DNA of 22,387 nt from an uncultured bacterium (GCA_963825135.1 CAWGRW010000013.1:1-22387); one strand, 5' to 3'; positions 609-22,387 are shown, numbered from the stretch's first letter. Notes: generated from the sequence alone by a model not told the origin. A program made the numbers and translations.

Positions 609-643
609 TTTATTGTAGAGCGGGGGAGCATGGAGGAACGCAT

Positions 644-3658: not shown

Positions 3659-3670
3659 GGGGATTGCCGA

Positions 3671-4450
3671 GTGTGGATTATGAGAACACCGTGCACCTAA
3701 AGTGGTCTATGAAAAGATAATGAAAAGACAAAGAAAGGCGAAGGGCTGTTTGATTGATCCTTCTTTTCCTCGATGAGAAGAAGCACACGCATAGTGTGGA
3801 TTATGAAAAGACTAGAAAGGTGAAAGGCTGTTTTTTTATCCTTCTTTTCCTTGATGAAAAGAAGCAAAAATCATCCGACTACAGAATTGTGCTAAAAATC
3901 TCATGTACTCGCTAAATCTTCCAATTCTACCCCATCCCACGTAAGATTTTTAACGCTCGTACAATCGATTTTCTTAACGCAAATTCTGTAATGTCGGTAA
4001 CGTGCTTCGACTAGCTCAGCACGAACGGGTTTACATATCTGGGTACACCCCCACCCTAACCCTCCCCCCTCCTATTGAGGGGGAGGGAAATAATTTCGCA
4101 CCCTTCGACAGCACACTACGCGTGCGCTCAGGGTGAACAGGATTGGGCAAATTCCCCGGCGATGGCAGAGGAGTTACGGAAGGATCGTAGAGACACACAT
4201 TGTGTGTGCCCGCCGCGAATTCTGTAATGTCGGAAGATAAAGAAAAAACTAGATTGCCGCGCTTCTCTCGCATTCGTTCGTTACGCTCGCAATGACAAGA
4301 TCAAAGACTGGATTCCCGATGAAGGCTTTCGGGAATGACAGAAAGAAAAGATGAGATTGCTTCGCGTTGCTCGCAATGACAGGGTAAGTCGGGCGGAGGA
4401 GCGCAAGTAGAATCGTGGAAACCCACTGTGTGCGCGTGCGTCTGGTCCCG
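3671..4450. repeat. Mosaic repeat block 1
   Basis: Leader (gtgtggattatga..acaccgtgcacctaaagtggtc), element A 3841-3997, then several REP-like palindromes. Ends at the stop codon of the minus-strand gene at 4452. Confidence 0.9.
3841..3997. repeat. Element A: ~157-bp MITE/REP-like structured repeat (copy 1 of 8)
   Basis: 9-bp hairpin cttcttttc-cttgat-gaaaagaag followed by a long imperfect hairpin ccgactacagaatt...aattctgtaatgtcgg. Other copies: 7106-7261, 9882-10036, 13388-13544, 16124-16365, 16581-16738, 20734-20891, 21924-22079. Confidence 0.93.
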
Positions 4451-4451
4451 T

Positions 4452-5087
4452 TCAGATGGCGTTGATCTCGGTCTGGAGCTGCAGGAGCAGGGGCTCGTAA
4501 ATGCCGCTATCGGGAACGGTCTCGGTCTGGTCGCAGCCGAGGGTGTCGAGTACGTTGTAGTATGCGACCTGGTTGTAGAGATACAGAAGCCTGTCCTCGA
4601 ATTCCTGTGAGGCATCGACCTTGCTAGGGCCGTCGAGGTATGTGAACTGCCCCCCGTCATCGAGCCTCAGGCAGTTGCTGAAGAAACTCTTCGCCGTCTC
4701 GTCGAACACGCCGTCGTTATTGTAATCGGCGGACGCCTTGATTAATTCGCACGCGGTGCCCGCGCCCGTGGGGACTCCGCCAAACCCGAACGTGGTCAGG
4801 CCGTCGGACACCAGCACAAACACGTTCTTTCCGTCCGAGTAGAGGTGCGTATCGAGCGTGCTCCCCGCGGCGTTATAGACGTAGAACTCATTCGTATCGT
4901 CAACGTTCACGTAAGCCGTATTCAACGACGGAGAATTACATGCCGTGGGCTTCGAGGTAGGCGCGGGCGTGGGCGAGGGTTTGGGCGTAGGCTGAGGGTT
5001 GTCCCCTCCCGATCCGCCGCAGCCTCCGTAGATTAAGGCTAAAATTACGGGAAAGAGTATAAAGGCATATATTTTTCTCGATTTCAT
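4452..5087 (-). CDS. Hypothetical lipoprotein with Pro/Thr linker
   Basis: MKSRKIYAFILFPVILALIYGG-C lipoprotein-type signal, PQPTPKPSPTPAPT linker; GGGG RBS upstream of ATG-ATG-ATG (5093/5090/5087). Confidence 0.8.
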   Translation of the reverse strand: MKSRKIYAFILFPVILALIYGGCGGSGGDNPQPTPKPSPTPAPTSKPTACNSPSLNTAYVNVDDTNEFYVYNAAGSTLDTHLYSDGKNVFVLVSDGLTTFGFGGVPTGAGTACELIKASADYNNDGVFDETAKSFFSNCLRLDDGGQFTYLDGPSKVDASQEFEDRLLYLYNQVAYYNVLDTLGCDQTETVPDSGIYEPLLLQLQTEINAI

Positions 5088-5309
5088 CATCATCCCCTTC
5101 ATTATATTCAAACATTTGTGCCGGGACCGATTCCAAGCGTCGGAACGGGAAGCACCCTGATTTATCCCGTCTTTGTATCGCGATACAAATGATTAACTAT
5201 ATATCTATATGCTAATATTGACCAGCAATACATCACAAACGAGTTTAGCAATTATCCTGTACAAACTGAAAACATTATCTATTACAAATGGTACTTCAAA
5301 AAATAAAAT

Positions 5310-5338
5310 TTGACAAGTGTTATTAGAATATCTATATT
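5310..5338 (+). promoter_or_regulatory. Sigma70-type promoter upstream of collagen-like gene
   Basis: TTGACA (5310-5315), 17-nt spacer, TATATT (5333-5338), preceded by an A/T-rich tract. Confidence 0.65.
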
Positions 5339-5426
5339 AGGATATATTTTCTCCAGCAATTGACTAAAGTAGGAAAGAATTTGACAGGATAGACTAGAAG
5401 ACCTTTTTTATTCACATTACAGGAGA

Positions 5427-6845
5427 ATGGAGATGATGAGAAGGGAGATCGGGATATCTTTAGCTTTATGCTTTTTGTTGTTTGCAAGTAGAAGTAATTC
5501 AGAAGAATTAACCTTTTGCGTACTCGACGATTTTCTTCAAATAGTGACTTTCAGAGGGCCCGGTACGGAATGTCTCGAACAGGAGGTTCCTATTCAGGTA
5601 AATGCCGGGGAACAGGGACCGCCCGGACCTATGGGACCGGAAGGACCCCAGGGACCAATCGGTCCTGAGGGAGCGGTCGGACCAATCGGACCTCAGGGAC
5701 CCATCGGATCTACGGGAGCGACCGGGGCTACGGGACCTACGGGGACGGCGGGGACGGACGGGCTCAACGCGTTTGTGAACACGACGCCCGAGCCCGCGGG
5801 AGCTAACTGCGCGGACGGCGGCGTAAAGGTCGAATCCGGACAGGACAATATCGTTTCCAGCACTACTTACGTATGCAACGGGCCCGAGGGACCTCAGGGA
5901 CCAATCGGCCCGACAGGGACAACAGGTGCGACCGGAGCAACGGGTCTAACCGGACCAACCGGAGCAGTAGGACCCATCGGTCCAATCGGGCCTACAGGCG
6001 CGACCGGGGCTACGGGACCTACAGGGCCTGCTGGTACGGACGGGCTCAACGCATTTGTGAACACGACGCCCGAGCCCGCGGGAGCTAACTGCGCGGACGG
6101 CGGTGTAAAGGTCGAATCCGGGCAGGACAATATCGTTTCCGGCACTACTTACGTATGCAACGGGCCCGAGGGGACAACAGGGCCTGCCGGACCTGCGGGA
6201 CCAGCAGGGCCAGCCGGGCCTATCGGACCCGCCGGACCCACGGGAACGACAGGGGCTACGGGCCCTGCCGGGCCAGCCGGGCCAACGGGAACGACCGGAG
6301 CTACCGGTTCTACAGGGGCTACGGGGCCTGCCGGGCCAGCCGGACCCGCCGGGCCAACGGGAACGACCGGAGCTACCGGTGCTACGGGGGCTACGGGGCC
6401 TCAGGGGCCTAAGGGTGATCCCGCACCTGCCGGCGTGACTATATTGTCAGGCGGGTCTCGTATTAATATCCTAACCGGAGCATCTGCCACTTCTACATTC
6501 ATAGATATGTTTTTGGAGAACTCCAGTGCTACTGAATCTGTAGTTCAACATAGCTTGCCCGTTTCGGGCGCACTTGTGGGTCTAAATATCTTATTAGACA
6601 ATACTATAGGTGCCGCACCCAACAGTTATGCATTCACGGTGATGGTGGGCGGCATAGCAAGTTCTATCACCTGCACGGTGAGCGGGCCGTCCGGGACAAC
6701 CTGTTCCAGTGCGTTATGCGTTGATCTGGCTGCGAATGCATCGATCGATGTACGTAGCGTTTCAAACGATAATCCCACCGCGCGGACCGTATGGTTGTAT
6801 TCTACGTTCCGTCCCGGCATGACGTGCGCGGCGCTCGGGTTATGA
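5427..6845 (+). CDS. Secreted collagen-like (Gly-X-Y) protein with two Cys-bracketed repeat domains (DUF7151-like) and a C-terminal globular domain
   Basis: N-terminal hydrophobic signal; three GXY runs (GPT/GAT/GPA); two copies of [33 protein letters not shown], 282 bp apart. Start may be 5433/5436 given the AGGAG position. Confidence 0.9.
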
Positions 6846-6901
6846 AGACGGTATAAGAATAAGACGGAGTGAAATTTTCAATTAGCTGAAGAATAATCGA
6901 G

Positions 6902-6932
6902 GCCCGGGAGAATATTCTCCGGGCTTTTTTTT
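6902..6932 (+). terminator. Rho-independent terminator
   Basis: gcccgggagaa-ta-ttctccgggc followed by a T run. Confidence 0.8.
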
Positions 6933-6934
6933 GC

Positions 6935-7935
6935 CCGCTGCCGCAAATTGTGTAACGTTCGGGGAAAGAGAAAAGATAGATTTCTCGCCTCAGGCGAGAA
7001 ATGACGGGAAGATTCATGTAGGAGCAGCTTCCGGCCGCGACACAAGCGTAGTGTGATCTTTCGAAAAGACAAGACAAAGAAAGGTGATAGGCTGTTTTTT
7101 TTATCCTTCTTTTCCTTGATGAAAAGAAGCAAAAATCATCCGACTACAGAATTTGCTAAAAATCTCATGTACTCGCTAAATCTTCCAATTCAACCCCACC
7201 CCGTGGAAGATTTTTAACGCTCGTACAATCGATTTTCCATACGCAAATTCTGTAATGTCGGGGGAGATAAAAGAAAAGACAGATTTCTCCCGTTGGTCGA
7301 AATGACAGTAAAGGAGATGCTTGAGATCGTATGCCCGCGGGTGCTCACCCGCCGCAAATTCTGTAATGTCGGGAAGAGAAAGAACAAACTAAATCCTCCC
7401 TAACCTACTTGGACTTCAGAAGCATTGAGCCGGAAGTTAAGTTCCTTCTTTGCTCTTTAGAGTAGGGCGTCCGAATGCTCACCTATTCGCATCCGTTCTT
7501 TTTCTAAGGAGGGAATAGAGATAAAGACGAGATTGCTTCGCTTCACTCGCAATAACGGGAAAGGAGATGCTTGAGATCGTATGCCCGCGGGTGCTTACCC
7601 GCCGCGAATTCTGTAATGTCGGGAAGAAAAGACTCCCTGATTGATAGTAGTGATAAGGTAAACCCCCCACCCATACCCTCCCCCTCAAGGGGGGAGGGAG
7701 ATAAGATTACCGTCCTTCGACAGGCTCAGGGTGAACGGGGCGGCGTGTCGCCGCTGACGTACGAAAACGTCACGATTGCCGGTTTGAGTGAGGAGTTTCG
7801 ACAGGATCGTATATGAGCACACATTGTACACCCCCACCTTAATCCTCCCCCTTGCGGGGGGAGGGAAATTATTGGTCGGGATAAGGAAGTCCACTAGAAT
7901 CGTATAGACACACGCCGTGTGTGCGTGCGCGCGAA
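6935..7935. repeat. Mosaic repeat block 2
   Basis: Includes a GTAG-type REP (tgtaggagcagcttccggccgcga ~7017), element A 7106-7261, insert 7407-7497 and other modules; abuts the dacB stop codon. Confidence 0.9.
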
Positions 7936-9547
7936 TCAATAGTCGCGCCAGAGGACTGCGGATATTGTGCCCTCGTCCTGGAATATTTCGAGAAGGTCGT
8001 TGAGCTGCTTAACCGGGACATTGTTGACGACGAGCTGGTAGACGAGGCGTCTGCCGCTCTTCGCGTCGATATAACCGCCGAACGCCTGTCCCTTTATCAC
8101 GAGACCCGATGCGTCACCGGCCGCGAACGTGCCGGTCTTTGCGCGCACCCGTCCCTTCGCCCCGGCTAACGTCGGATCGGACTCGAAATCGGTCACGAAA
8201 CCGAGAGAGCCGTCCACTCCGAGTATCGGCAGCGCAGCGAAGAACGCGCCGAACGCCGGCTTCCCGGTCATTATCCTGAGCCATTCGGTGACTGCTTTGT
8301 TAGTCGCCGTGGTCCCGCCGCCGCCGCTTCCGTCGATGAAGAAGAACTCGCCGCCCGGTATGCCGAAATTCTCCGTGAGATTAACCCTCTCGGCCGCGAG
8401 TGCCGCGTTCATGTTGTCTACCCCCTGCGTAAGCCCGAATAAAACCAGACTGGTATCCGCGCCGATGTTATAGCTCACTTTCAAAATCAGCTTCGCAGTC
8501 TCGGAATAGGGCAGTCCTTTGAGCTCTGCCAGTTTTGTTTGAGGCGTGTACGAGTTTCGGGCTGGAAGCAACTGCGCCGGGTTTTCGGCTACGGAGGATG
8601 CGCGGACCGTTACGCCCGCAGCCTTGAGCGCCTCGATGAATACGGTGCGCGCGTAGTTCGAAGGCTGTGTAATGCGGAAGGCCTGCACCAAGGGGTACTT
8701 GTTGGTGAGTGGAGGAATAAAATCAACTGGAATCTGCCCGGCTATGGCTGCCGTGCAACCAGTCTTGCCGATGCACTCAGGTGCTACCGGCTTTAAGGCG
8801 AGCGTATTCTGCGAATGCGCGGCGCTGGTAACCAGATTGTTCTCGACCCCGAGTGCTGCCGAGACCGGACGCCACACTACCGAGGCAGGTTTGCCCGGAG
8901 TCGTGGGCCGGATGCTCAGATCCACCAGATCGCCGTTGACGAAAATAGGTCTAACGTCGAACTGGCCTCTGAAGTTAAAAGGCTGAAAGAGCCGGTCGTC
9001 GATAATGACGTTGCCGGTAACCTCCTTTACCCCTGACTTCGCCACCTGCTGAGCTAACTGGATATACCCAGCCAGCGGGTTAGGCTTGGTGAGCGTAGCG
9101 TTCCCCAGGCTGTCGGCCTCGTTGTGGTCGAAATTGGCGACCGCGATCGTGCCGTCCGGATTCGTTCGTCCGCCCATGGTGAGGTCGCCTGACGCGACCA
9201 ACACCAGGTCGCCGTGCAGCACGCCGGCGCTGTTCAACTCCCCGTGGCGATAGACCGGTGTGTTGTAGCGGTGGTCAGGACCTACCTGGTTCAGCAACTC
9301 TCCCACGGAAAAAATCTTGCGCACCGAGCCGATGTAGAAATTGCAATGCGGCTGCAGATCCATGAGTTCTTTGCCGGTGCCGAGATCTACGACTCGCAGT
9401 CCCCAGATAGAGCCTGAGTAAAGCGCCTTGTCGAATGTCGCGCGTATGTCGGCCGGGATGTTCGAGCCCGAGCCGCGAAGCCCTTGTACAGGACGAAACG
9501 GCAATCAGGACCAGTAAAAACACGAGTAGAGCTTTCCGGTATCTCAT
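7936..9547 (-). CDS. dacB: D-Ala-D-Ala carboxypeptidase/endopeptidase (peptidase S13, PBP4-like), paralog 1; frameshift near 9480-9500
   Basis: Motifs SVRK (SxxK), SYN (SxN) and KTGT; also GDLVLVASGDLT and DGSG. Signal peptide MRYRKALLVFLLVLIAVSSC starts at 9547 with a GGAGG RBS, in a different frame from ORF 7936..9504. Confidence 0.88.
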
Positions 9548-9714
9548 GCATTATCCTCCGTCAAGACAGGGTGATTTTGATTAACAGAAAATATAACGGT
9601 AAACAATTATAGCCTCGGTTGGGGGGGAAAGGGAAATGGGGGGAGGAAAATACGGGATTGCCGAACTTGCTTGCTCTTTTGAGGAAGATAAATAAAAAGA
9701 AAAGGCGAATATAT

Positions 9715-10704
9715 TATCTCTTCTTTTCCTTGATTAACGCAAGCAGTGTGGTCTTTCGGAAAGACAAGACAAAGAAAGGTGATAGGCTGTTTTTTTTATC
9801 CTTCTTTTCCTCGATGAGAAGAAGCACACGCATAGTGTGGATTATGAAAGACGAGAAAGGTGAAAAGCTGTTTTTTTTATCCTTCTTTTCCTTGATGAAA
9901 AGAGAAAAATCATCCGACTACAGAATTGTGCTAAAAATCTCATGTACTCGCTAAATCTTCCAATTCTACCCCACCCCGCGTAAGATTCTTAACGCTCGTA
10001 CAATCGATTTTCTTAACGCAAATTCTGTAATGTCGGGGAGATAAAGAAGAGCAATTTCTCCCGTTGGTCGAAATGACAGTAAAGGAGATGCTTGAGATCG
10101 TATGCCCGCGGGTGCTCACCCGCCGCAAATTCTGTAATGTCGGGAAGAGAAAGAACAAACTAAGTCTCCCTACCTACTTGGACTTCAGAAGCATTGAGCC
10201 GGAAGTTAAGTTCCTTCTTTGCTCTTTAGAGTAGGGCGTCCGAATGCTCACCTATTCGCATCCGTTCTTTTTCTAAGGAGGGAATAGAGATAAAGACGAG
10301 ATTGCTTCGCTTCACTCGCAATAACGGGAAAGGAGATGCTTGAGATCATATGCCCGCGGGTGCTCACCCGCCGCAAATTCTGTAATGTCGGGGAAGAAAT
10401 AATCTCCCTATTGATAGTAGTGATAAGGTAAACCCCCCACCCACACCCTCCCCCTCAAGGGGGAGGGAGATAAGATTACCGCCCTTCGACAAGCTCAGGG
10501 TGAACGGGGCGGCGTGTCGCCGCTGACGTACGAAAACGTCATGATTGCCGGTTTTGAGCGTAAGAGTTTCGGAAGGATCGTATATGAGCACACATTGTAC
10601 ACCCCCACCTTAATCCTCCCCCTTCGGGGGAGGGAAATTATTGGTCGGGATAAGGAAGTCCACTAGAATCGTATAGACACACGCCGTGTGTGCGTGCGCG
10701 CGGA
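9715..10704. repeat. Mosaic repeat block 3 (near-copy of block 2)
   Basis: Same module order and near-identical sequence to ~7060-7935, including insert 10176-10266; has one extra leader unit. Confidence 0.9.
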
Positions 10705-12314
10705 TCAATAGTCGCGCCAGAGAATCGCCGAGATGGTGCCTTCGTCCTGGATCACTTCGAGAATGTCGAGAAACGCATTCAACCTGACGTTGTTGACGAC
10801 GACCTGATAGACGAGCCGTCTCCCGCTCCTGGTGTCGATGTACCCGGCGAACGCCTCGCCCTTCACGACGAAACCCGTCTCGTCCCCGCCGGCGAACGTG
10901 CCGGTCTTGGCGTGCACCTGTCCCTTCGCTCCGGCGAGGGTCGGGTCGGACAGGAAACCGTCGACGAACACCATGGAGCCATCAACGGCGAGGATCGGGA
11001 GCGAGTCGAAGAAAGCCTCGAACGCCGGCTGCTCCGCCATGATCTCGAGCCATCTCGTCACGACCTCGTTCTTCGCCGTGGTCTCGCCGCCGCCGTCGCC
11101 GTTGATGAAGGAGAAGTCGTCTCCGGGAAAGCCGTACACACTCGTCAGCATCTCCCTCTCGGCGACGAGCGCGTCGTCCATGTTGTCGACCCCTTGCGTG
11201 TTGCCCCAGAGGAGGAGGCTCGCGTTCGCCCCCAGGTTGTAACTCAACTTGTTGATCAGCTTCGCGTAGTCGGCGTACGGGAAGGAGGTGAACGACGTCA
11301 CGAGGTCTTCCTCGGAATACGAGTTCCTGGGCGGGAGCTTCGCCACGGGATTCTCGGCCACGGGATCGGCAAGCACGGTGACGCCCGCGTTCTCGAGAAG
11401 CTCGATGAGCACCGTACGCGCGTAGTTCTGCGGCTCCGTGATCCTGATCGTCTGGACGAGCGGGAACTCGTTCGTGAACGGGGGGACGAAGTCCACCGGA
11501 AGCTGTCCGGACACGGCGGACGTGCAGCCGGGCTCGCCGATGCAGGCGGGGAACCCGGGGTCGATCCGAGGGTGAACTCCGTGCCCGGGCCCGACGTGAC
11601 GAGATGGTTCACGACCCCGAGTGCTGCTGATCGGGGACGCCAGTCGACCACGGCGGGCATGCCCTCCGAGCCGGGACTCATGATGAGATCGACGCAGTCG
11701 TCGTTGACGAAGATCGATCTCATGTCGAACTCTCCCCTGAACGAGTAGGGTTCCCAGAGTCTGTCGTCGATGACGACGTCGTTCACCTGGATGATGCCCG
11801 AGGCCGCGATCTGCTGCGCGATGGCCTTGTAGCCCTCGAGCGGGTCGGGCTTCGTGAGCACGGCATTGCCAAACGAGCTGGCTTCGTTGTGGTCGAAGTC
11901 GGTGATCGCAAACTGCCCGTCCTCCTTCGTCCTGCCGCCCATCGAGATGTCGCCCGAAGCGACGAGGATCAGGTCGCCGTCGAGAACCCCCGCGCCGTCG
12001 ACTTCGCCTCGCTTGTAGATGGGTGTGATGAAGAGGTGATCGGGTCCTAGTTCGTTGAAGAGTTCGCCGACGGAGAAGATCTTCCTCACCGAGCCGATGA
12101 GGAAATCGTAATCGGGCCTGTAGTTGATCAGGACCTCGCCCGTGTCGAGGTCCTGGACCCGAAGCCCCCAGACAGAGTCCGAGTAGAGCGGCTTGTCGAA
12201 GATCGCGCGGATGCTGGCGGGGACCTTCGAGTCCCCGCTCGACGAGCAGGCCTCGAGGCCAAAAGCGGCCGTCACGACCAATAAGAACGCGAGTAAAGGT
12301 TTCCGGTATTTCAT
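10705..12314 (-). CDS. dacB: D-Ala-D-Ala carboxypeptidase/endopeptidase (peptidase S13), paralog 2, lipoprotein; frameshift near 11567
   Basis: ORFs 11298..12314 (lipobox-like LEA-C, SVRK) and 10705..11514 (SYN, KTGT, ...LWRDY) join into a protein collinear with paralog 1. Confidence 0.88.
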
Positions 12315-12506: not shown

Positions 12507-13176
12507 TCACAACGCTTCGTGCATCTTCGCCGAGGAGGCGGGGTCGACGGGGAATTTCACGCTCTCGTAGAAGATCGCCAGGGTGCATTCGGACTTGTCG
12601 TCGGCAGACTTCCTGTCGTCGAGCTCGATCATGATTTTAGTCCTGTCGTTTATCGTGGGCCAGATGTACCTTAAACCGTATCTCCCCGTGCATATCTCCG
12701 CGGGGTGCTCGTAGACGGTGTCCTCGCTCTCGTTCTCGGCGTATTTCGCCTGTCCGTCGGGCTCCTTCCCGGTCTCCTCGGTTATCTTGTCCGTTCGCCT
12801 GTCAAACTCGTCGATATAGCCCTTCGCGTCCGCCTTGGGGTTGTCCATGTGGAGTATGGCCATGCCGAGCTTGCCGTCCGGGAAGAGGTAGACGAGGTTG
12901 TAGTCGGGTACGTCGATATCCATGGATAGCTCCATTGATTTCCCATCCAGGTCGGGATGCGTATGGATAATTTCGCGCGTAGGCCCGCCTTTGACGAAGT
13001 ATACGAGTATGCTGTCAGTTTCCTTGATTTTCTCGGCCTTTTCGTGCTTCATGGCACTCTTCTTTCGACATGCCCCACTTAACGTCCCTCAGGTCGGGCT
13101 TTTCGCCCGCCGCGAAGGACAGGGCCGCCGGGGATAGCAATAATAAGGCGATTACGGCAAGTGATTTGATGTTCAT
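12507..13176 (-). CDS. Secreted hypothetical protein, 'WGM' family member 1; frameshift near 13055
   Basis: MNIKSLAVIALLLLSPAALSFA signal and PDLRDVKWGMSKEE, continuing into ORF 12507..13052; homologous to 14110..14807. Confidence 0.78.
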
Positions 13177-13269
13177 GGGTCTCCGCTCCCGTTCAGGGTG
13201 TTGCGGATATTATAGTGCCGGAAGGGCGGGGGACGCAAGAGGGGGATGTGTGCCGATGGTCGAACGGGA

Positions 13270-14109
13270 GGGCTCGCAATGACAAAGGAAAGGCGAAAGG
13301 CTATTTGATTTATCCTTCTTTTCCTTGATGAACACACATAGTGTGAACTTTCGAAAAGACACAGAAAAAGCAAAGACAATAGATTTTCTTCTTTGTCTGG
13401 ATACAAAGAAGCAAAAATCATCCGACTACAGAATTGTGCGGAAAATCTCATGTACTCGCTAAATCTTCCAATTCAACCCCACCACGCGTAAGATTCTTAA
13501 CGCTCGTACAATCGATTTTCCATACGCAAATTCTGTAATGTCGGTAACGTGCTTCGACTAGCTCAGCGCGAACGGGTTTACATATCTAGGTACACCCCCA
13601 CCCTGGCTGTTTTGGCCTAGGCAACGTAAAGCCGGAAGTTAATGTACTTCGGTGACTTCGCTGAGAGAGTGACCAGTTGCGCGCTTGCTTGCAACTGTTC
13701 CCCCCTCCTATTGAGGGGGAGGGAAATAATGTTCGCACCCTTCGACGGGCTCAGGGTGAACGGATTGGATTGTGCCGAGGGGGGATGTGAGAGATCATAT
13801 GCTCGCGGGTGCTCACCCGCCGCAGATTCTGTAATGTCGGGAAGAAAAGACTCCCTGATTGATAGGAGTGATAAAGGTAAACCCCCACCCATACCCTCCC
13901 CCTCAAGGGGGAGGGAGAGAAGACATGAGAGCCCTTCGACGGGCTCAGGGTGAACGGGGCGTCGCGTCGCCGCTGACAATCGAGAGCATTGCGGAAGCGG
14001 AGGAGTCGCACTAGAATCGTAAAAACGCACTATGTGCGTGTGTGCCCGCCGCAAATTGTGAAATGTCGGGGAAAGGAAAGACGAGATCGCCGCGCTGCGT
14101 TTCACTGCG
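13270..14109. repeat. Mosaic repeat block 4
   Basis: Leader, element A 13388-13544, then a segment paralleling 3998-4140 but with an insert at ~13608-13699; abuts the stop at 14110. Confidence 0.9.
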
Positions 14110-14807
14110 CTAGAGTGTCTCGTGGAGCTCGTTCGAGAGGGCGGGGTCCATCGGGTACTTCACGCTCTCGTAGAAAACGGAGAGGTTGCAGTCGGGCTCG
14201 TGGGAGAACTTCTTCTGGTCGAGCACTATGGTGATGTCGGTGCTGTTTTTGAAAGTGGGCCAGGCGTGTTTGAGGGAGTACTGTCCTTCGCAAATCTCCC
14301 GGGGCGCGGAATAGGGGTCGTCCTTCGGCGCGCTCACGTCGTACTCGGCGACTCCCGAGGCGGGGGTGCCCGTCTCCTTCGAAATCTCCGCGGACTTTTC
14401 CCTGAGGAGCCTGATGTATTCGGCGGGGTCCTGGGCAGTATCGCGGAGGTGAAGCACGGCCATGCCTAGCCTGCCGTCCTTAAACGCGTAGACGACGTCG
14501 TATTCGGGCTCGGGCGTTTCGACCTCTATGGTTACGCGCGGACTCTCCCGGGCGCTGCCGTCCCCGGGCTTCGCGTCGAGTCTCGACCTTTACCGTGCCC
14601 TCGGATTCAACGGTCGCGAACCCGCCGCCGATCCTGTAAATCAGCACCTCGTTGCCCTCCTTCATGAGCTCCGCGGTCTCGCGTTTCCTGACCTCTTCTT
14701 TGGACATGCCCCACCTTACGTCCCTGAAATCGGGCTTCCTGTCGCGCGAGCAGGACGACGCGGCGAGGGATATCGATACCGCAAGAAATATAGCTCTCTA
14801 GTTGCAT
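14110..14807 (-). CDS. Hypothetical lipoprotein, 'WGM' family member 2; several frameshifts
   Basis: Reconstructed MQLRAIFLAVSISLAASS-C...PDFRDVRWGMSKEEV. C-terminus EICEGQYSLKHAWPT...FYESVKYPMDPA..HETL matches member 1 (EICTGRYGLRYIWPT...FYESVKFPVDPA..HEAL). Confidence 0.75.
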
Positions 14808-14909: not shown

Positions 14910-15803
14910 TTATCGAGTGTCTTCCAAAAACTCCTCGATCGCGTTGAGTACGGCGGCGGGTGCGTCCTCCTGGAGAAAGTGCGAGGCGTCGGGTATCTCG
15001 ACTGAGCGGGCGTGCGGATAGACGCTCTTCCAGATCTCGAGCAGGACCGGCGGGAGTATCGGGTCGAGCATGCCCCACACTATGAGCACGGGGATGTTCT
15101 CGAACATCCCAAGATTCTTTTCTATCGCCGCCATGTCGTCCCACGAGGGATCCCCTTCGTCGACCGGGATGTCCCTCGACCAGCAGAGGAGCGCCCGCCT
15201 CGATTCGGGCGTGGGGAAGGGCGCCATGTACGCGCCCATCACCTCGGGGGTTATCTTCTCCGGATAATTCACAGTGCCCGTGATCGCGCGGCCGACGTAC
15301 CCGTTTTTCTCCAGCACGAACTGCTCCCCGCGCGGGGACCTTATCATCTCGACAAGTTTCGGGAAGGGCGCTCCGGGCCAGCGCGCGAAGGCCCAGGTGT
15401 TCGTGAGCACGAGGCGTTTTATGAGTTCCGGGCGTCTCACGGCGAAGCCCAGGCCGACGGGGCCTCCCCAGTCGTGGACTACGAGCGTGATGTCCGAGAG
15501 GCCTAACGAGAGGACGAGCGATTCGAGGTTGTCTATGTGGCGGCCGAGGCGGTAAGGGTAGGGCCCTTCGGGCGCGTCCGATTTGCCCATGCCCATGTGG
15601 TCGGGGACAATGACGCGGCGCCCGGCCGATAGAGCCGGGATGAACTCCCTCCAGAGATACCCCCACGTAGGGTCGCCGTGGAGCATGAGCACCGGCTCGC
15701 CCTCTCCTTCGTCGATATAATGCATATCGAATCCGCCCGCGCCAGAGAAGCGCGGAGCGAAGGGGAACGTGCCGCCGAATGTCTCGTCCCTGATGCCGGG
15801 CAT
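14910..15803 (-). CDS. Alpha/beta-fold hydrolase, haloalkane dehalogenase/OleB-like
   Basis: MHYIDEGEG, LHGDPTW, PDHMGMGKSD, nucleophile elbow VVHDWGG, WGMLD, catalytic SHFLQED. Confidence 0.88.
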   Translation of the reverse strand: MPGIRDETFGGTFPFAPRFSGAGGFDMHYIDEGEGEPVLMLHGDPTWGYLWREFIPALSAGRRVIVPDHMGMGKSDAPEGPYPYRLGRHIDNLESLVLSLGLSDITLVVHDWGGPVGLGFAVRRPELIKRLVLTNTWAFARWPGAPFPKLVEMIRSPRGEQFVLEKNGYVGRAITGTVNYPEKITPEVMGAYMAPFPTPESRRALLCWSRDIPVDEGDPSWDDMAAIEKNLGMFENIPVLIVWGMLDPILPPVLLEIWKSVYPHARSVEIPDASHFLQEDAPAAVLNAIEEFLEDTR

Positions 15804-15949
15804 GACGTTACAACCATACAATATTTATAAGCGGGGTGTCTATGGGGCGGGGCATTCACTCTCGTGAAACGCGGAGGGAGGTAATTACGTGTACGACGCA
15901 CCCGCGCGGCTCAGGCGGAACGGGATTTTTCTCCGTGTATTTCCGCGGC

Positions 15950-17030
15950 CGATGAACACACGTAGTGTGATTTGTGAAAACACCGTGCACCTAAAGTGGT
16001 CTATGAAAAGATAATGAAAAGACAAGAAAGGTGAAAGGCTATATTTTTATCCTTCTTTTCCTTGATGAAAAAGAAGCAAAAATCGCATACATAGTGTGGA
16101 TTATGAAAAGACAATGTTATTTTCTTCTTTGTCTGGATACAAAGAAGCAAAAATCATCCGACTACATAATTTGCTAAAAATCTCGTGTACTCGCTAAATC
16201 TTCCGATCCCGCCCCATCGGAACAGTAGCTTAGCGATGTCCGTGGTTAACTAACGTCGTGCGGATAGGAGAGGGTGTCCGAATGCGCGCTCGCTTGCATT
16301 CGTTCCGCGTAAGATTCTTAACGCTCGTACAATCGATTTTCTCAACGCAAATTCTGTAATGTCGGGAAGGAAAAGACGAGATTGCCGCGCTGCTATGCAG
16401 ATTTGTATATGGTCTGTCCTTCCCATGGCACAGTAGCTTGCTCGCGTTTTGCGGAGGGCGACCGATTGCTTACTAGCTCGCAATCGTTGCAATGACAGGA
16501 AGATTAATGTAGGAGCGGCTTCCAGCCGCGATTTGTTTGAGCGGACAAAGGAGAGACAAAGGAAAAGCCCAATTTTATTTCTTCTTTTCCTTGATGAAAA
16601 GAAGCAAAAATCATTCCGACTACAGAATTATGCTAAAAATCTCATGTACTCACTAAATCTTCCGATTCAACCCCAGCCCACGTAAGATTTTTAACGCTCG
16701 TACAATCGATTTTCTTAACGCAAATTCTGTAATGTCGGGAATATAAAAACGAAAGACGGATTTCTCACTATTAGAATTTGATTCAGCGTTTTGCCAAGCT
16801 CAACAAATTCCGTTCTGGTTAGTGAGAGCGTCCGGTTCTTACGCTTGCTCGGAACCGTTGTTCGAAATGACAGGAAAGGAGATACTTGAGGTCGTATGCC
16901 CGCGGGTGCTCACCCGCCGCAGATTCTGTAATGTCGGAAAGAAAAAGAAAAAACTAGATTGCCGCGGTTTCTGCGAAGCCTCGCAATGACAGGGTAAATC
17001 AGAGAGAGGGGATTTATTTGCGGATTCTGT
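15950..17030. repeat. Mosaic repeat block 5 (two element-A copies, three inserts)
   Basis: Leader, A 16124-16365 and 16581-16738, GTAG-type REP tgtaggagcggcttccagccgcga ~16508; inserts 16219-16304, ~16395-16488, 16771-16859. Confidence 0.9.
16219..16304. mobile_element. 86-nt structured insert inside element A loop (family of 7 inserts)
   Basis: Removing it restores ccgccccatc|ccgcgtaag, the empty loop at 20821-20839, with no duplication. Ends in agggtgtc, a 7-bp stem with 10-nt loop, then tt. Confidence 0.75.
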
Positions 17031-17032
17031 GC

Positions 17033-17761
17033 CTACTGCTGCGGTTCGTCGCCCGCGCCGGAGAGGAGGAATTTGATGGCGTCGGACGAGCGGGCGGGCG
17101 GGAGCTTGAGCGTCTCCGAGTATAGCTCCGCTATGGCGAAGCAGACCTTCTTCTTGTCCTCTTCGGAGAGCTCCGTCTGCGCCGTGTAGTCGATCTCCGG
17201 GCCGTACTTCGCGACGACGTTCGATGAGACGCGGCCTACGTCCCTTTTCGCCTGCTTCACGTCCTTGAGCTTCGCGGGCTCCGTGTGAGCGGACCTGATA
17301 ATGAGCGCAATCGCCCTTAAGACCTCGTTCTGCTCCTCGGGCGTCATGAGGGTCCACATGCACTGCTCGTTGCCGTTTATGAGATCGACGCAGCACTCGG
17401 GGTCGCTGTTTCCGGCCTTCCGGAACACGCCTATGAAGGAAGTGATGAACGCCGAGGTCGCTTCGTGCGAGGCGAGGGGCAGGTCGTTTCCGAGGAGCGC
17501 CGCGATCTTATCGCCGTTGGACGCTATTATATCGTCCATCTTGCCGCCCTTGATAATCGCCGTTTTCGTATCGGACAGTATTTGCTTGTAGAGGTCGGGG
17601 TAGTATTCCTTTATCTCAGGGAACGCGGGGACTTCGAGCATGCGGGACTCGGCCGTGTAGTAGTAGTAGAACCTCATCATCTGGGGGTAGGCCCAGTAGT
17701 AGATTACGAGCACCGCGGCTACGACCGCCAGAATCCTTACGACAGCGCGAATCGGTTTCAT
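17033..17761 (-). CDS. Hypothetical protein with N-terminal membrane anchor (242 aa)
   Basis: Intact ORF with GAGG RBS and hydrophobic ILAVVAAVLVIYYWAY; no family recognised. Confidence 0.8.
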   Translation of the reverse strand: MKPIRAVVRILAVVAAVLVIYYWAYPQMMRFYYYYTAESRMLEVPAFPEIKEYYPDLYKQILSDTKTAIIKGGKMDDIIASNGDKIAALLGNDLPLASHEATSAFITSFIGVFRKAGNSDPECCVDLINGNEQCMWTLMTPEEQNEVLRAIALIIRSAHTEPAKLKDVKQAKRDVGRVSSNVVAKYGPEIDYTAQTELSEEDKKKVCFAIAELYSETLKLPPARSSDAIKFLLSGAGDEPQQ

Positions 17762-17940
17762 CTTGCCTCAATGGGGAAAAATTGCCCGGGATAACTGAAT
17801 TATACTCGGAGAATCGGGAGGTGTGAAATTTTTGCGCGGCGGGTTAAGAACCGGTGAAAAAGGTTTATTATTTCTTTTAATTATGGTATATTGGGCGTAG
17901 ATTAAGCGGAAGGGTGATATGCCCTTATAGGAGGAGCTAT

Positions 17941-18468
17941 ATGAAACACATTATTAAAGCATGTTACGTACTATTGATTATTGCCGTTCCGGGAACCATG
18001 ATCGTCCCCTCGCTCACCCGAAGCGCGGGCGCGCAGAGTTGCGAGCTGGTCATATGCAAGTCGGCCGAAGGCGCGGGGGATACGCCGTTCGAAGTAAGGT
18101 TCGAAGTGGGCGGTGAGGTGGGCAAGGGAGTGCTGGTCGATCAGGGACTGTGCATCCTGCAAACGTTCGATTCGCCCAATACGCTGACAGTCGCGGAATT
18201 GCCGACGCCCGGATGGGTGCTCGACGATGTGTTATGCCCCGGCATCAACGGAATTGAGATCACCGACACCAACGACGGGTTTGTGGCCGAATGCGTGTCG
18301 TCGAGCGCAGGCCACGTGCACGCTGGTCAACGTGAGGGAACGGCCGAGGCGAACGTCCCGACGCTCGGCGAATGGGGCGTGTTAGTATGGCCGCGGGCCT
18401 CGGATTGTATCGGGGTGTTCTTCGCGTTGAAACGGCTTCGGGCGGGCAGAGGCTCCGAGCAGGCGTAA
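17941..18468 (+). CDS. IPTL-CTERM surface protein, type B (possibly prealbumin/SpaA-like beta domain)
   Basis: GGAGG RBS; signal peptide; LVICKSAEGAGD..F and ELPTPGWVLDDVLC motifs; NVPTLGEWG tail with apparent compensating indels. Confidence 0.8.
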   Translation: MKHIIKACYVLLIIAVPGTMIVPSLTRSAGAQSCELVICKSAEGAGDTPFEVRFEVGGEVGKGVLVDQGLCILQTFDSPNTLTVAELPTPGWVLDDVLCPGINGIEITDTNDGFVAECVSSSAGHVHAGQREGTAEANVPTLGEWGVLVWPRASDCIGVFFALKRLRAGRGSEQA

Positions 18469-18498
18469 GAACCGGAATCGCATCAACTAAGGAAATAG

Positions 18499-18934
18499 AT
18501 GAGGCGGATAATTAAAGCCTGTTGCGTCTTATTGATTATCGCCGTTGCGGAATCATGATCGTCCCCTCTTTCGCGCGGAGCGCGCAGGGCTGCCGGCTGG
18601 TTATATGCCTGGAGGCCGACGGCGCGGGGGATGCGCCTTTCAATATCGGGATCGAGGACGGCGGAAAGACGGAGAAGAAAGCGCTGGTTGATATGGGGTC
18701 GTGTATCCAGGAGTCCCTCGTCCCGTCCGTTACGCTTAAAGTCACGGAGCTGCTGACGCTCGGATGGGTGCTCGACGATGTGGTGTGCACGGGCCTCAGG
18801 GAATAAAGATCACCAAAACGAAGGATGAGTTCGCAGCTAGGTGCGCGTCGTCCGGTGAAGGCGGGTGCACGGTTGAGAACGAGAGGGAGTGGCCGGATAA
18901 TATCCGGCGGGGGATACGGCGGCCAGCGCGGTAA
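18499..18934 (+). CDS. Type-B paralog lacking the IPTL-CTERM anchor (frameshifted; possibly pseudogene)
   Basis: Reconstructed MRRIIKAC..LLIIAV...LVICLEADGAGDAPF...GWVLDDVVC..IKITKTKDEFAARCASSGEGGCTVENEREWPDNIRRGIRRPAR*; collinear with the 17941 gene. Confidence 0.65.
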
Positions 18935-18982
18935 AACATTCGATAGGCGCTGACGTAAATGCGGAATAGGGAGACATACTAT

Positions 18983-19742
18983 ATGCGCGGTATATGTTCG
19001 CTCGGAGCGGTGATAATGTTCGTTATCCTGGCGGCGGTTGTCGGTGCGTCTCCGGCATTTGCGCAGGTAGATTTCCTGTTCGACAAAGGCGAATACATAG
19101 CGAACCATCCGACCAGCTCGTTCAGACCTTTCGAGGCGGGCAACGTAGCCCGGGGCGGCAGCCAGATCTGCGGTGACGTAGTGAACTCGTTCACAAACGA
19201 CGTACTGTTTCCGCCGGCGGACATACTGCCGGGGCTCCAGTTCATGACCAACTTCGTCGGAAAGCCCCTGTATATCGAGGGCGAGCACGTAGGCGGCGAA
19301 GGGAACCCCGGAAAGGTGCTCGGGACGCAGACTGACGGCACTAACGAGTTTCTGGAGATAGAATTCCCGCAGGGCGGGGTACACGCCGCGGGGAATCGTT
19401 CCGGGATGCTTCGACGGATCACCCGGATGCGAGGCTACTTACTTGTTCAGCGTGTACGGCGAGGGTGACGTATTGATCGACGATACGAAGGTGGAGGTGA
19501 CCGACAGGTTCGACACGTTCATCGGATTCGATTCGCCCGTGCCGGTGACGAAGGTCGCCATATCGGACCTGAACGGGACTACGACGTTTGAGGCGGTGGA
19601 TGAGGTGAGGTTCGGCAGGGCGGACGCGAATATCCCGGCTCTGTCGGAGTGGGGAATGATAGCGGCTGCTGCGGGATTAGGATTGGTCGGGGTGTTCTTC
19701 GCGGTGAGAAGGAAACGGCTGCAAGCAAGAATTTCTACTTGA
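18983..19742 (+). CDS. IPTL-CTERM surface protein, type A; frameshift(s) ~19390-19445
   Basis: Signal ...SPAFA-QVDF and FPPADILPGLQF; continues in 19443..19742 with FDTFIG and NIPALSEWGMIAAAAGLGLVGVFFAVRRKR. Confidence 0.83.
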
Positions 19743-19772
19743 ATAAAATAAATAATTTTCGAGGAGGATCGT

Positions 19773-20306
19773 ATGAATAAAGTATTGAATTCGTTTTTGG
19801 AACTTTCGGTATTCATATTGGCGGCCGTCTGTATAGCGTCGTTCGGAGACAGCGCGAGCGCGCAGCCGCCGTGCGCGGTGACAATCTGCAAGTCAGCTCC
19901 GGGAGCGGGGGACCAGGGTTTTCTAATCGATTTCACCGATTCCGGTATGACAGAAACTGTAGAGCTCTTCGACGGAGGGGACTGCATTACGACGCAATTA
20001 AATTTTGACGCCGACGTCGATATCACGGAGCAGCCTACACCCGGCTGGACGCTCGACGATGTCCTCTGCGATTCCAGCACGGGGTTTGAGTTTACCGCTA
20101 TACCGGGTGGTATTACCGCCCTCTGCACGAGTGAGGCTCTGTCTGAGACGACCTGCACATTCGTCAACGTTCCGGGAGTTACGAGTAATGCTATCCCGAC
20201 TCTGTCCCAGTGGGGGATGATCGCGGCCGCTGCGGGATTAGGATTGATCGGAGTGTTCTTCGCCGTCAGGAAACGGTTACAAGCGAGCAACGAATTCGAT
20301 GAATAA
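19773..20306 (+). CDS. IPTL-CTERM surface protein, type B (intact, 177 aa)
   Basis: GAGGAGG RBS; signal peptide; VTICKSAPGAGD, EQPTPGWTLDDVLC and TCTFVN motifs; AIPTLSQWG TM tail. Confidence 0.92.
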   Translation: MNKVLNSFLELSVFILAAVCIASFGDSASAQPPCAVTICKSAPGAGDQGFLIDFTDSGMTETVELFDGGDCITTQLNFDADVDITEQPTPGWTLDDVLCDSSTGFEFTAIPGGITALCTSEALSETTCTFVNVPGVTSNAIPTLSQWGMIAAAAGLGLIGVFFAVRKRLQASNEFDE

Positions 20307-20477
20307 GAGAATTCGGACGCCCTGAGCTGAGAATCTCGAATGCTTGTGTTCATAGGATGATCTATTGAACCCGAAATAAACCGGACGCCAAAGGCTCATT
20401 GCGGAATTCTTATCGACACTGCATAGAAGTAATTGAAGCCAAAGTGAGGGCGCAGGCGGTATAGACGGGAAATAACA

Positions 20478-21057
20478 GCGAGATTCCCGATAGATGCTCA
20501 CGGGAATGACAGAAAGGAAAAGCGGGACCCTGAAACCAGTTCAGGGTGACTTCGAAGTTGCCCCTTTCTTCCGCAATGGAGGGAAGGGGCTTTTTTTACG
20601 GTCGGAGAGAAAGACAAAGAAAGGCGCAAGGCTATTTGATTGATCCTTCTTTTCCTTGATGAAAAGAAGCACACACATAGTGTGAACATTCGAAAAGACA
20701 AGAGAAAGGAAAAGGCTAAGACAATATTATTTTCTTCTTTGTTCTGGATACAAAGAAGCAAAACTCATCCGACTACAGAATTGTGCTAAAAATCTCATGT
20801 ACTCGCTAAATCTTCCAATTCCGCCCCATCCCGCGTAAGATTTTTAACGCTCGTACAATCGATTTTCTTAACGCAAATTCTGTAATGTCGGGGAAAAAGA
20901 AAAAACTAAATCCCCCTTAATCCCCCTTTTTCTAAGGGGGAAATTGAAGGGAAGAGACCCTTCGACAGCACACTTCGTGTGCGCTCAGCACGAAGGGGTT
21001 TGGCTTCGCTTGTTGGTTGAGCTGAGGAGTCACGGAAGAATCGTAGAGACACACAAT
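20478..21057. repeat. Mosaic repeat block 6
   Basis: REP-like modules, leader, element A 20734-20891, further palindromes; ends ~20 bp before the stop of the minus-strand gene at 21078. Confidence 0.88.
20560..20597 (+). terminator. Rho-independent terminator after second IPTL array
   Basis: gcccctttcttcc-gcaat-ggagggaaggggc followed by T7. Confidence 0.8.
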
Positions 21058-21077
21058 GAGCGAGCGGGCCGGATGTT

Positions 21078-21671
21078 CTACGGCTGCTGATTGAGCTTCC
21101 GCCCCTCGACGCGCGGGTTTAACTTCACGCTGTAGTAGAGCACCGAGAGGATTGTGTTCACGTTCCCCTCCCTCGAGAGTCAGGAATATTTCGGTCTCGG
21201 GCGTTTTCCAGGAGGTCTGGAGCACCAGCTTCCCTTCCGTCACGGCCTTGCCGTACGCCTCGGGCTTTTCCTCCTGCTGACCCGGGCTCCAGGTCTTCCA
21301 GTCCTCCGCAGGCTTGCCGAATTGCCCGGCGAGGACGCCCTTTACCCTCTCGTAGTCCTTCACGTACTGCTCGAGGGTCCTCGTACTTGTTCGTCACGGC
21401 GTATCCGCCCAGGACAAGCTTGTCGTTCGTGAACAGGTATCCGATCTCCGCGTCGAGCCCCTCGTACTTCCCCCTGTAGCTAATGGCGAGGTCGTAGGGC
21501 GGCAGAGTTTGGTCTCGCTTACGGGTGTGCCGTTCTCCGTGAGCTTCACCTGCGCCGGGGTCATGCCCCAGCGGGTTTTCCTGAAGTCGTGGGTTTTGTT
21601 GTCCGCGCGGGATTCGGGGGCCAGGACGGTGAGTATTAGGCCGCGATCAGGGCGAGCGTGATAGGTTTCAT
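21078..21671 (-). CDS. Secreted hypothetical protein, 'WGM' family member 3; several frameshifts
   Basis: Reconstructed MKPITLALIAA..LTVLAPESRADNKTHDFRKTRWGMTPAQVK...YERVKGVLAGQFGKP...WKTPETEIFLTL...LSVLYYSVKLNPRVEGRKLNQQP*; GGAG RBS. Confidence 0.72.
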
Positions 21672-21764
21672 CGGCGTGTTCTCTCCCTCCGTAGAATTAT
21701 ACATGCAGATCGGGCAAAAGGCGGGGTTCCGCTCTGCTTTGCGGCATTCGATGCGGGAGAAAAG

Positions 21765-22387
21765 GCAAAGGAAGGTGGAAGGCTGCTTTTTCATCCTTCT
21801 TTTCCTTGATGAAAAGAAGCAAAAATCACACACGTAGTGTGGATTATGAAAACACCGTGCACCTAAAGTGGTCTATGAAAAGATAATGAAAAGACAAGAA
21901 AGGTGAAAGGACTTTTTTTAATCCTTCTTTTCCTTGATGAAAAGAAGCAAAAATCATCCGACTACAGAATTGTGCTAAAATTCTCATGTACTCGCTAAAT
22001 TTTCGATCCCGCCCCGGCCCACGTAAGATTTTTAACGCTCGTACAATCGATTTTCTTGACGCAAATTCTGTAATGTCGGTGACGTGTTTCGACTAGCTCA
22101 GCACGAACGGGTTTGGCTTCGCTTGTTCGTTGAGCTGAGGAGTTACGGAAGAATCGTATATGAGCACACATTGTGTGCCGCAAATTCTGTAATGTCGGGA
22201 AGGAAAAGACTTTCTTGCTTGATTGGAGTGTAATGTAAACCCCCCACCCTTAACCACATGCTCGACAAATCGGAGAGCATGGTCACAGTTGCTTAAGTGG
22301 CCAAAGGGTTCAAGCGTCCTACTTCTCGCTCGCTCGAAGCAGTTCCCCCTCCAGGGGGAGGGGAATATTTCGTCCTTCGACCATTCG
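21765..22387. repeat. Mosaic repeat block 7 (runs off window)
   Basis: Leader, element A 21924-22079, REP-like modules, and an insert at ~22256-22344 in module B. Confidence 0.88.

Follow-up and report, generated by a model that had tools for sequence, protein, structure and literature searches.

In Escherichia coli, bacterial interspersed mosaic elements (BIMEs), together with the repetitive extragenic palindromic (REP) sequences served by REP-associated tyrosine transposases (RAYTs), are intergenic mosaics of imperfect palindromes and short motifs, enriched at gene 3' ends and between convergent genes, in families that are vertically inherited and lineage-specific. We analyzed a 22,387-nt stretch of DNA (CAWGRW010000013.1, hereafter the window) that is the whole of the 22.4-kb contig C13 in an uncultured bacterial assembly (GCA_963825135.1, G000; 3.13 Mb, 17 contigs, 94% complete), in which seven intergenic blocks of hairpin repeats have these same characters. 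The blocks are organized around a conserved 160-nt unit, HP1+A, in which a small hairpin (HP1) precedes a 125-nt long imperfect hairpin (A), and they include a GTAG-footed REP module whose inverted copies accompany a RAYT-like gene in two relatives. Unlike BIMEs and hairpin-forming REP doublets (REPINs), the core here is a 160-nt three-stem structure rather than a 20-40-nt REP or REP doublet, the asymmetric units are co-oriented, replication polarity is strict, and the copies are restricted to a span of a few hundred kb close to the terminus. Unlike REP-RAYT systems, G000 contained no RAYT.

Neisserial mosaic and Correia elements, in which short conserved repeats flank variable segments and act as landing sites for other mobile DNA, are likewise intergenic mosaics; they are not known to be related in sequence to the repeats described here or to be defined by a replication-linked orientation. 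In Pseudomonas fluorescens SBW25, REP tandem arrays run forward near 2 Mb and in reverse near 4 Mb (Bertels and Rainey 2011, PMC3116915), and our repeats likewise have opposite orientations on the two sides of the chromosome. The SBW25 arrays are compact tandem runs of two kinds of REP separated by fixed spacers, whereas the units here occupy separate intergenic regions, between unrelated genes, each with a variable chain. The passages on single-strand transposition in PMC6006769 state that IS608 and ISDra2 leave and enter the lagging-strand template, that REPs form BIMEs, that TnpA-REP cleaves and rejoins REPs, and that REP/BIME are probably mobilized by TnpA-REP.

We read the blocks, with a probability of roughly 0.55, as BIME/REPIN-like intergenic mosaics of non-coding hairpin repeats, with replication-coupled spread and accumulation near the terminus. 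HP1+A is the organizing piece, behind which accumulate solo copies of a 20-nt core, GATT..AATGAC hairpins, FDKLR-type hairpins, the GTAG REP and N elements. A limited literature search on intergenic repeats in Dadabacteria found no description of this repeat family.

Orientation of HP1+A and chromosome replication

The original prediction of seven polarized blocks with one shared layout, filling about a quarter of the window, was borne out. Repeat finding and direct reading delimited seven blocks covering 6830 of the 22,387 bases (30%, whole intergenic stretches counted), and every asymmetric module in the window lay on the + strand (core 17/17, left end of A 8/8, GATT..AATGAC 9/9, FDKLR-type 7/7, T module 4/4), far beyond chance. 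Across G000, blastn found 84 copies of A of at least 100 nt, located on C10 at 69-213 kb (43 copies), on C9 at 1-82 kb and a few isolated sites (22), and on eight small contigs (19, including 7 on C13). Orientation was single within every contig except C9: all 43 copies on C10 were in - orientation, C9 had 21 - and one +, all seven on C13 and all four on C11 were +, and another 8 were on small contigs. Judged against contig or 50-kb GC skew, the + form of A was on the G-rich strand in 82 of 84 copies, with C9:2547595 and the lone C12 copy as exceptions. Other modules were limited to the regions of A and were equally polar (on C10, 93:1 for the core and 36:1 for the FDKLR-type).

G011, from another genus (main contig 2.67 Mb), had a GC skew that flips from + to - at 2.262 Mb, and the flip was also present in coding sequence alone, at third codon positions, and in the genes of each strand separately. 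Since dnaA lies at 0.994 Mb, nearly opposite, this flip is the terminus on the usual assumption of a G-rich leading strand. Among the full-length matches listed for G011 from the covariance model described below, 5/5 left of the flip (2.2248-2.2509 Mb) were + and 17/17 to its right (2.321-2.479 Mb) were -. In G014, a third genus with a single contig, all seven sampled regions with an A match agreed in sign with the local third-position skew, which was taken from twenty noisy 20-kb samples and so supports the rule weakly, and the main cluster at 1.93-2.24 Mb ended where the skew turns. In G000 itself, skew becomes positive at C9:1.05 Mb, the site of dnaA; the switch region of G011 has its orthologous counterpart at C10 51-69 kb, a stretch with a skew flip of its own, and the array starts next to it, at 69.5 kb. 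These positions show that copies lie on the G-rich strand and flip at a terminus-type skew switch, with the arrays concentrated beside the switch. A short-word BLAST comparison of the G000 and G011 switches found only orthologous coding pieces and no dif-like site common to both.

The compositional asymmetry right of the G011 switch was itself strong. At G011:C1 2.26-2.42 Mb, GC skew was -0.12 to -0.25 and third codon positions reached -0.42, a much stronger asymmetry than to the left.

Hairpin-defined ends and an orientation bias relative to replication (the 82/84 copies of G000 and the 5/5 and 17/17 matches of G011) are shared with IS200/IS605 elements and their miniature derivatives. Unlike these, no Y1 transposase accompanies A, A consists of a single long hairpin in place of a body enclosed by two subterminal hairpins, and the structure of A is conserved by covariation across families. 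IS608 insertion can reportedly be directed to stalled forks, and an IS200/IS605-type preference for forks, stalled ones included, would explain both the polarity and the clustering at the terminus. In the mechanism we propose, modules would spread as folded single strands at the replication fork, which would fix their orientation and favor the terminus, where forks slow or stall.

The same polarity could instead mark host sites for chromosome organization in the terminus region, that is, polar protein-binding elements like Ter fork traps, FtsK-orienting sequences, or macrodomain sites, kept because they point to the terminus. In G011 the copies on either side of the skew switch opposite dnaA are inverted relative to each other, arrays begin beside the orthologous switch in G000, the G014 cluster ends at the skew flip, and A has two repeated conserved boxes about one helical turn apart, all of which would suit such sites. 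We nevertheless consider them unlikely: copy number ranges from 1 to >100 per genome, the model found no copy in 4/32 genomes of the family, and isolated copies occur far from the terminus (G000 C9 at 411 and 425 kb, G014 at 161 kb). Selfish repeats typically show the turnover of modules at orthologous sites, the nested insertions, and the concerted evolution seen here, and conserved bulges in a hairpin imply a single strand that folds, not a site in duplex DNA.

Neighboring genes followed a looser pattern than the chromosome strand. The original prediction tied block orientation to the adjacent gene, which did not hold genome-wide. With gene calls from a crude dicodon caller made for this analysis, the gene downstream of A was convergent, its stop facing A, in 50 cases and co-directional in 27, with none called in 7. 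The stop-facing rule is therefore a two-to-one tendency (50/77), and the hard rule is chromosome strand, not gene direction. The 73 distinct intergenic regions with A were 21 convergent, 11 divergent, and 41 tandem, the last with A anti-oriented to the genes in 27 and co-oriented in 14.

Structure of HP1+A and the T module

Hairpin A, bounded by the termini CCGAC/GTCGG, comprises three covarying stems and an apical loop rich in C, with two conserved asymmetric boxes, GCTAAA opposite TTYTTAACGC, and bulged bases always on one arm. We built a structural alignment of 28 copies, mutually <93% identical, from six genomes in three genera. The termini, both asymmetric boxes, the linker GCAAAAATCA between HP1 and A, and the C-rich loop were invariant across it. 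Changes on both sides occurred in 23 of the 38 pairs of the predicted structure (HP1 plus the three-stem hairpin). Paired cells were at 95.2%, compared to 80.4% in column shuffles, none of 500 of which attained 95.2%, and 38-45% with partners slid by 1-3 columns; the covariation score was 0.374 vs 0.117. The HP1+A structure is under selection.

A covariance model from the alignment had full-length matches in 42 of 120 genomes of a phylum sample, comprising 28/32 in the family of the window and a patchy remainder elsewhere; up to 24 candidates were scored per genome, so copy numbers from this search are lower bounds. By blastn, A was found in 25/41 relatives and in 20/24 within the family. Both searches show that the HP1+A unit is inherited across a bacterial family.

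Selection on structure invites an RNA explanation, in which HP1+A would be a structured transcript, encoded by a multi-copy small RNA gene transcribed co-directionally with replication, or else a cis element that stabilizes or terminates read-through transcripts or directs their processing, with the chain as a long structured untranslated region (UTR). Strong covariation, the conserved unpaired boxes and loop, and a full-length architecture kept across families are what a functional RNA would give. The complement of A, the sense strand of convergent genes, folded better than A by 8.5 kcal/mol with RNA parameters (117/124 copies; 115/124 with DNA parameters), and + strand mismatches were A.C in 18 cases and G.T in 8, as expected if the other strand uses G.U pairs. 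A was also enriched in convergent intergenic regions (21/36, vs 41/143 tandem), and the T module stands at a fixed 20-26 nt from stop codons. However, orientation relative to genes was mixed (50:27 downstream, 27:14 in tandem regions), while orientation relative to strand composition was nearly absolute, and the divergent promoter regions that make up 11/73 of the A-bearing regions argue against A serving generally in 3' UTRs. Inspection by eye revealed no promoter-like motif shared upstream of copies from different genera, and terminator-like sites were no commoner than in shuffles (19 vs 21.3). Rfam 15 had no match at gathering score over the whole window; with E up to 1, positions 3600-17100 had one chance-level match outside the repeats (rli42, 21 bits vs a cut-off of 80). 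No tRNA or tmRNA genes were found. A structured RNA is a possible but less likely account of the unit.

All six complete blocks were originally described as ending within about 20 bp of the stop codon of a minus-strand gene. This was true of blocks 1 to 4, where the last module was within ~10 nt of the stops at 4452, 7936, 10705, and 14110, but the last recognizable module of block 5 fell ~40 nt short of 17033, and the gene at block 6 is frameshifted, with a frame open on to 20932, and ~21078 is the ancestral-frame stop, which copies on C10 and C1 retain intact. It is the T module, separate from the other repeats, that makes the contact with stop codons, whether it serves as a post-stop hairpin or gene ends are where it prefers to land. 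T modules also occurred alone outside the arrays, at gene ends, on both replichores and in both orientations. In the seven clear solitary cases the convergent gene ended 20-26 nt past the motif, a gap that the T hairpin just fills, and in G003 a T module adjoins the stop of the orthologous PBP4 gene. The solitary copies at stops and the PBP4 case make T a gene 3'-end element in its own right. A terminator and promoter consensus scan flagged none of the T modules as terminators.

Gene order, module turnover, and routes of spread

Genes of the window were collinear in G009:C9, G003:C2, G004:C83, and G008:C415 at 67-88% nucleotide identity, and it was the modules between them that differed. G009 had A at all five matching intergenic sites, three of them, at the sites orthologous to blocks 1-3, split by a ~100-nt N-type insert in the apical loop, whereas the copies of G000 are intact there. 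In G003 the blocks at matching sites were built of other modules, without A. At an isolated site in the core genome (C9:2.5474 Mb), G000 has 525 nt of intergenic sequence, and the gap between matched flanks is 194 nt in G007 and 119 nt in G006; other modules were present at the G003 and G008 counterparts. Genes stay and modules turn over at orthologous sites, which is the opposite of cassette behavior.

Cassettes on an integron- or BIME-like platform were one original interpretation, the other being long structured 3' UTRs or ncRNAs. In an integron-like platform A would be a site-specific recombination site, the genes between A copies mobile cassettes, and the recombinase encoded elsewhere. 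A does resemble integron attC sites, including those of clusters of attC sites lacking integrons (CALINs). It is attC-like in size, a long imperfect hairpin with conserved extrahelical bases, near-identical within a chromosome and species-specific between genomes, and its co-oriented arrays span >150 kb and separate accessory genes for transporters, hydrolases, IPTL-CTERM proteins, and a RelB-domain protein. The tandem duplication of a block plus a PBP4 gene, with its boundary at the leader, would also fit. By inspection, the termini of A read CCGAC/GTCGG and not RYYYAAC/GTTRRRY, and no R/L box consensus was apparent; GTTAAGA/GTTAAAA-like boxes do occur, internal and in tandem on one arm. Other properties were unlike those of attC arrays. 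Units held multi-gene operons, were up to 16 kb long, and had genes in both orientations; the C10 array contains a type III polyketide synthase cluster and a MacAB-TolC-like efflux set between A copies, besides regulators, transporters, and many IPTL-CTERM genes. A also inverts across the terminus, following the strand, and has isolated copies between core genes. For the integrase IntI (TIGR02249), the best match in G000 had 88 bits against a cut-off of 265, a level that 14/14 control genomes also reached, with none above the cut-off; the best matches were Xer-like recombinases of 311-320 aa encoded far from the arrays. The earlier note had set its cassettes against conserved synteny in relatives lacking the blocks. 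Order was kept in four species, including G003 without A at those sites, which comes near to this, although these relatives carry blocks too. The cassette reading is already largely refuted by synteny, and we consider it highly improbable.

Within a genome, blocks resembled one another more than position would predict. Blocks 2 and 3 shared 233 nt at 97% identity while the adjoining gene ends were 84% identical, and the A copy of G009 at the block 5 position was 92% identical to the block 1 copy of G000 and 88% to its positional counterpart. These comparisons show that blocks are homogenized within a genome by concerted evolution. Larger units were duplicated as well. Block 3 matched block 2 at 88% over 1373 nt, as a tandem duplication of block and PBP4 gene, and the duplicated unit of 2.77 kb (leader, A, module chain, and PBP4 gene) aligned at 88% between 7071-8430 and 9848-11199. 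The tandem duplication was also present in G009 and the unit was single in G003. The contig as a whole matched C9:1-14305 at 84-98.5% identity and C10:179-197 kb at ~90-93% (with matches also at 222-224 kb), and had more frameshifted genes than its C10 copy. C13 is therefore either a diverged paralogue from segmental duplication or a second haplotype in the assembly. A strain-mix artefact was rejected as the source of the architecture, as the repeats are seen on all contigs and in other genomes. Under replication-coupled spread, recombination between co-oriented copies would then duplicate or delete block-plus-gene units, such as the 2.77-kb unit, and would yield the three diverged copies of a ~20-kb segment on C13, C9, and C10.

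The note had also reported no recombinase gene within the window, which we confirmed, and had proposed to look for a RAYT/TnpA-REP, GIY-YIG, DUF559, or tyrosine recombinase gene flanked by the same modules. None was tied to A. The sole DUF559 (Vsr-like endonuclease) gene of G000, C10:214600-215090, is between two inverted AAATCC..GGGGGAAAT modules, like a selfish gene in a hairpin repeat, and the sole small GIY-YIG gene, C9:191943-192170, is 2.4 kb from an isolated A copy. The GTAG REP GTAGGAGCGGCTTCCAGCCGCGA had 46 copies in G000, 2 of them in the window (blocks 2 and 5), in mixed orientation (13 - to 6 + on C10). In G009 (C25:10186-12461), inverted GTAGGAGCGGCTTCCAGCCGCGA REPs flank a 154-aa RAYT-like Y1 gene at locus positions 1441-1905, and a similar gene with inverted REPs is at locus positions ~1437-1900 in G003 (C8:98075-101368). 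The REP/RAYT component of the mosaic is therefore classical, though G000 is without such a gene. Likeness to BIMEs held for the intergenic palindromic mosaics and for this REP with its RAYT-like gene in two relatives, and failed in that units do not alternate.

How HP1+A itself moves is more speculative. The left arm of A has a sequence complementary to that of the core, stem I shows covariation between genera, at least 49 solo cores follow ATCGTA-hairpins, and at one orthologous site, by inspection, G008 has the hairpin plus core where G000 has the hairpin, HP1+A, and core. The stem I covariation, the solo cores as possible empty targets, and this one site led us to suggest, tentatively and at well below even odds, that HP1+A is a replication-coupled, base-pair-targeted element that lands 5' of a pre-existing 20-nt core, moved by neither a Y1 transposase nor an integron integrase, and that the terminus arrays are a recombination scaffold duplicating and losing families of secreted-protein genes.

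Several points weigh against the replication-coupled mosaic as a whole. A is not a REP, having no GTAG foot, a length of 125 nt, and arms that are not themselves palindromes, and its units do not alternate in orientation as those of BIMEs do. The better-folding complement of A is the leading-strand template, not the exposed lagging-strand template, and covariation with conserved bulges equally suits a functional RNA. No Y1_Tnp match was found in G000, in a genome 94% complete and with mobile genes often unassembled; Y1_Tnp was present in only 4/24 family genomes, compared to 20 to 28 family genomes with A, and a covariance search found no HP1+A match within 8 loci around the Y1 genes of relatives. 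On the side of polarity, the skew of G000 flips at C9 1.05 and 2.28 Mb, giving seemingly unequal replichores that could not be reconciled with a terminus on C10 in an assembly that is not closed, and all arrays of G000 are seemingly on one replichore, which makes array and replichore polarity inseparable there. One leader-only match in G014, at 1.318 Mb, disagreed with the skew, and three genomes of other families had mixed A orientation within contigs. The noisy skew of G014 and the crude gene calls count here too, and since A copies are related by segmental duplication, copy counts overstate the number of independent events.

Blocks, N elements, and genes of the window

Each block has one to three leader units, then A, then a variable chain of hairpin modules. 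A leader unit is a purine-rich stretch and a T run followed by HP1, with the loop YKGATS, and A has the termini CCGACTACAGAATT and AATTCTGTAATGTCGG. The chain draws on B and C modules (ATCGTA, a short GC-rich hairpin, and the 20-nt core, identical to the right end of A), GATT-hairpin-AATGACAG modules, TTCGAC..GCTCAG..GAACGG modules, CCCTCCCCC/GGGGGAGGG hairpins, the GTAG-footed REP, and the T module adjoining the gene. A copies in the window shared 92-98% identity over 125 nt, while the intervening genes were unrelated.

Table 1 Coordinates of repeat blocks and reference modules in the window.
Feature	Position	Strand	Composition
HP1+A, reference copy (conserved 160-nt unit)	3841..4000	+	HP1 with 9-bp stem and 6-nt loop; linker GCAAAAATCA; long hairpin A
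T module, reference copy	7880..7930	+	GAGGAG..GGAAGRATCGTA and a short GC-rich hairpin; the hairpin adjoins the stop of the convergent gene
Block 1	3659..4451	+	Two leader units; HP1+A 3841-3997; FDKLR-type and GGGGGAGGG hairpins; C module with solo core 4165-4233; three GATT..AATGAC hairpins; T module 4393-4443, 8 nt from stop 4452
Block 2	6846..7935	+	Canonical terminator 6894-6932 of the + strand collagen-like gene; degenerate core; GTAG-REP 7018-7040; HP1+A 7106-7261; two B modules (solo cores 7357, 7607); nested N insert ~7402-7499; T module 7880-7930
Block 3	9505..10704	+	Repeats from ~9650; three leader units; HP1+A 9882-10036; two B modules; N insert ~10172-10268; T module 10649-10699
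Block 4	13053..14109	+	Repeats from ~13240; HP1+A 13388-13544; three FDKLR-type hairpins; N insert ~13600-13701; B module (core 13825); C module 13997-14069; truncated GATT hairpin reaching into stop 14110
Block 5	15822..17032	+	Repeats from ~15950; HP1+A 16124-16365, split by N insert ~16219-16306 in the apical loop; GTAG-REP 16509-16531; second, intact HP1+A 16581-16738; B module (core 16922)
Block 5, further N inserts	~16389-16490, ~16770-16861		Both on the + strand, within GATT..AATGAC hairpins
Block 6	20307..21078	+	Repeats from ~20480; GATT hairpin; terminator-like hairpin 20560-20600; leader; HP1-variant+A ~20733-20891; AAATCC..GGGGGAAAT hairpin; T module 21021-21071 beside the ancestral-frame stop of a frameshifted secreted-protein gene
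Block 7	21681..22387	+	Cut short where the contig stops; two leader units; HP1+A 21924-22079; FDKLR-type hairpin; C module with core 22134-22198; N insert ~22245-22346
N-type insert	~20287..20390	-	Coordinates approximate; overlaps the 3' end of the IPTL-CTERM gene 19773..20306, supplying its last codons

N is a non-coding mini-element of ~95 nt nested in the loops of at least four types of host hairpin: the apical loop of A, GATT..AATGAC, AAATCC..GGAGGGAAT, and CCCTCC..GGGAGG. Its 3' end always has GYGWCC, a 6-7-bp stem with a 10-12-nt loop, the stem complement, and GTTC/G, and in G003 N inserts were nested two deep. The pattern of this 3' end was too loose genome-wide (114 + and 113 - hits on C9) and was applied within the window only. 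No parent element for N was found. Elements of the IS1397/ISKpn1 type insert into REP loops in a similar manner; N differs in that it is a mini-element without coding sequence, whose conserved 3' hairpin ends in GTTC/GTTG.

Genes between the blocks were unrelated accessory genes encoding IPTL-CTERM sorting-signal proteins, a phosphatase-like protein, a lipoprotein, a collagen-repeat protein, two PBP4-type D-Ala-D-Ala carboxypeptidases (one gene frameshifted), a small secreted protein family, a haloalkane-dehalogenase-like hydrolase, and a membrane protein. Several genes of the window were frameshifted and had intact paralogues on C10 and C1. Export signals in five of the six block-adjoining genes and a membrane anchor in the remaining one had been noted, which could be verified only in part. 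We found a lipobox signal in the product of 4452..5111 and in that of the second PBP4 gene's N-terminal fragment, and the membrane anchor in the 17033..17761 product; gene 6 had a signal peptide but in another frame, and the open frames 7936..9504 and 14110..14463 had no export signal as they stand.

Positions 1-3085 and 17914-20306 contained tandem paralogues of secreted proteins with the IPTL-CTERM exosortase-type sorting signal, among them the frameshift-split 657..1406, 2332..2592/2600..3085, and 18959..19468/19443..19742. Small GGGGGAGGG hairpins lie between these paralogues at 584-606, 1435-1457, and 2272-2294, outside the 3671..22387 region to which the original prediction referred. The collagen-like gene at 5427-6845 encodes a secreted protein of 472 aa that has two DUF7151 domains and collagen-type G-X-Y repeats with a 9-nt period; a shorter copy is on C10.

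For annotation, the modules call for caution, because they create many spurious open frames and lengthen real ones, and the repeat system may explain why these assemblies break into small contigs in the array region. About a tenth of the 3.1-Mb genome is organized by one repeat system, common to most members of an uncultured bacterial family, in which the direct-repeat blocks would drive the duplication and decay of genes for secreted and IPTL-CTERM proteins. The system provides a clean natural case in which the orientation of non-coding elements follows replication and reverses at the terminus, with a structurally conserved core and covariation enough for a model, and it may help to show how hairpin repeats can spread when no transposase is obvious.

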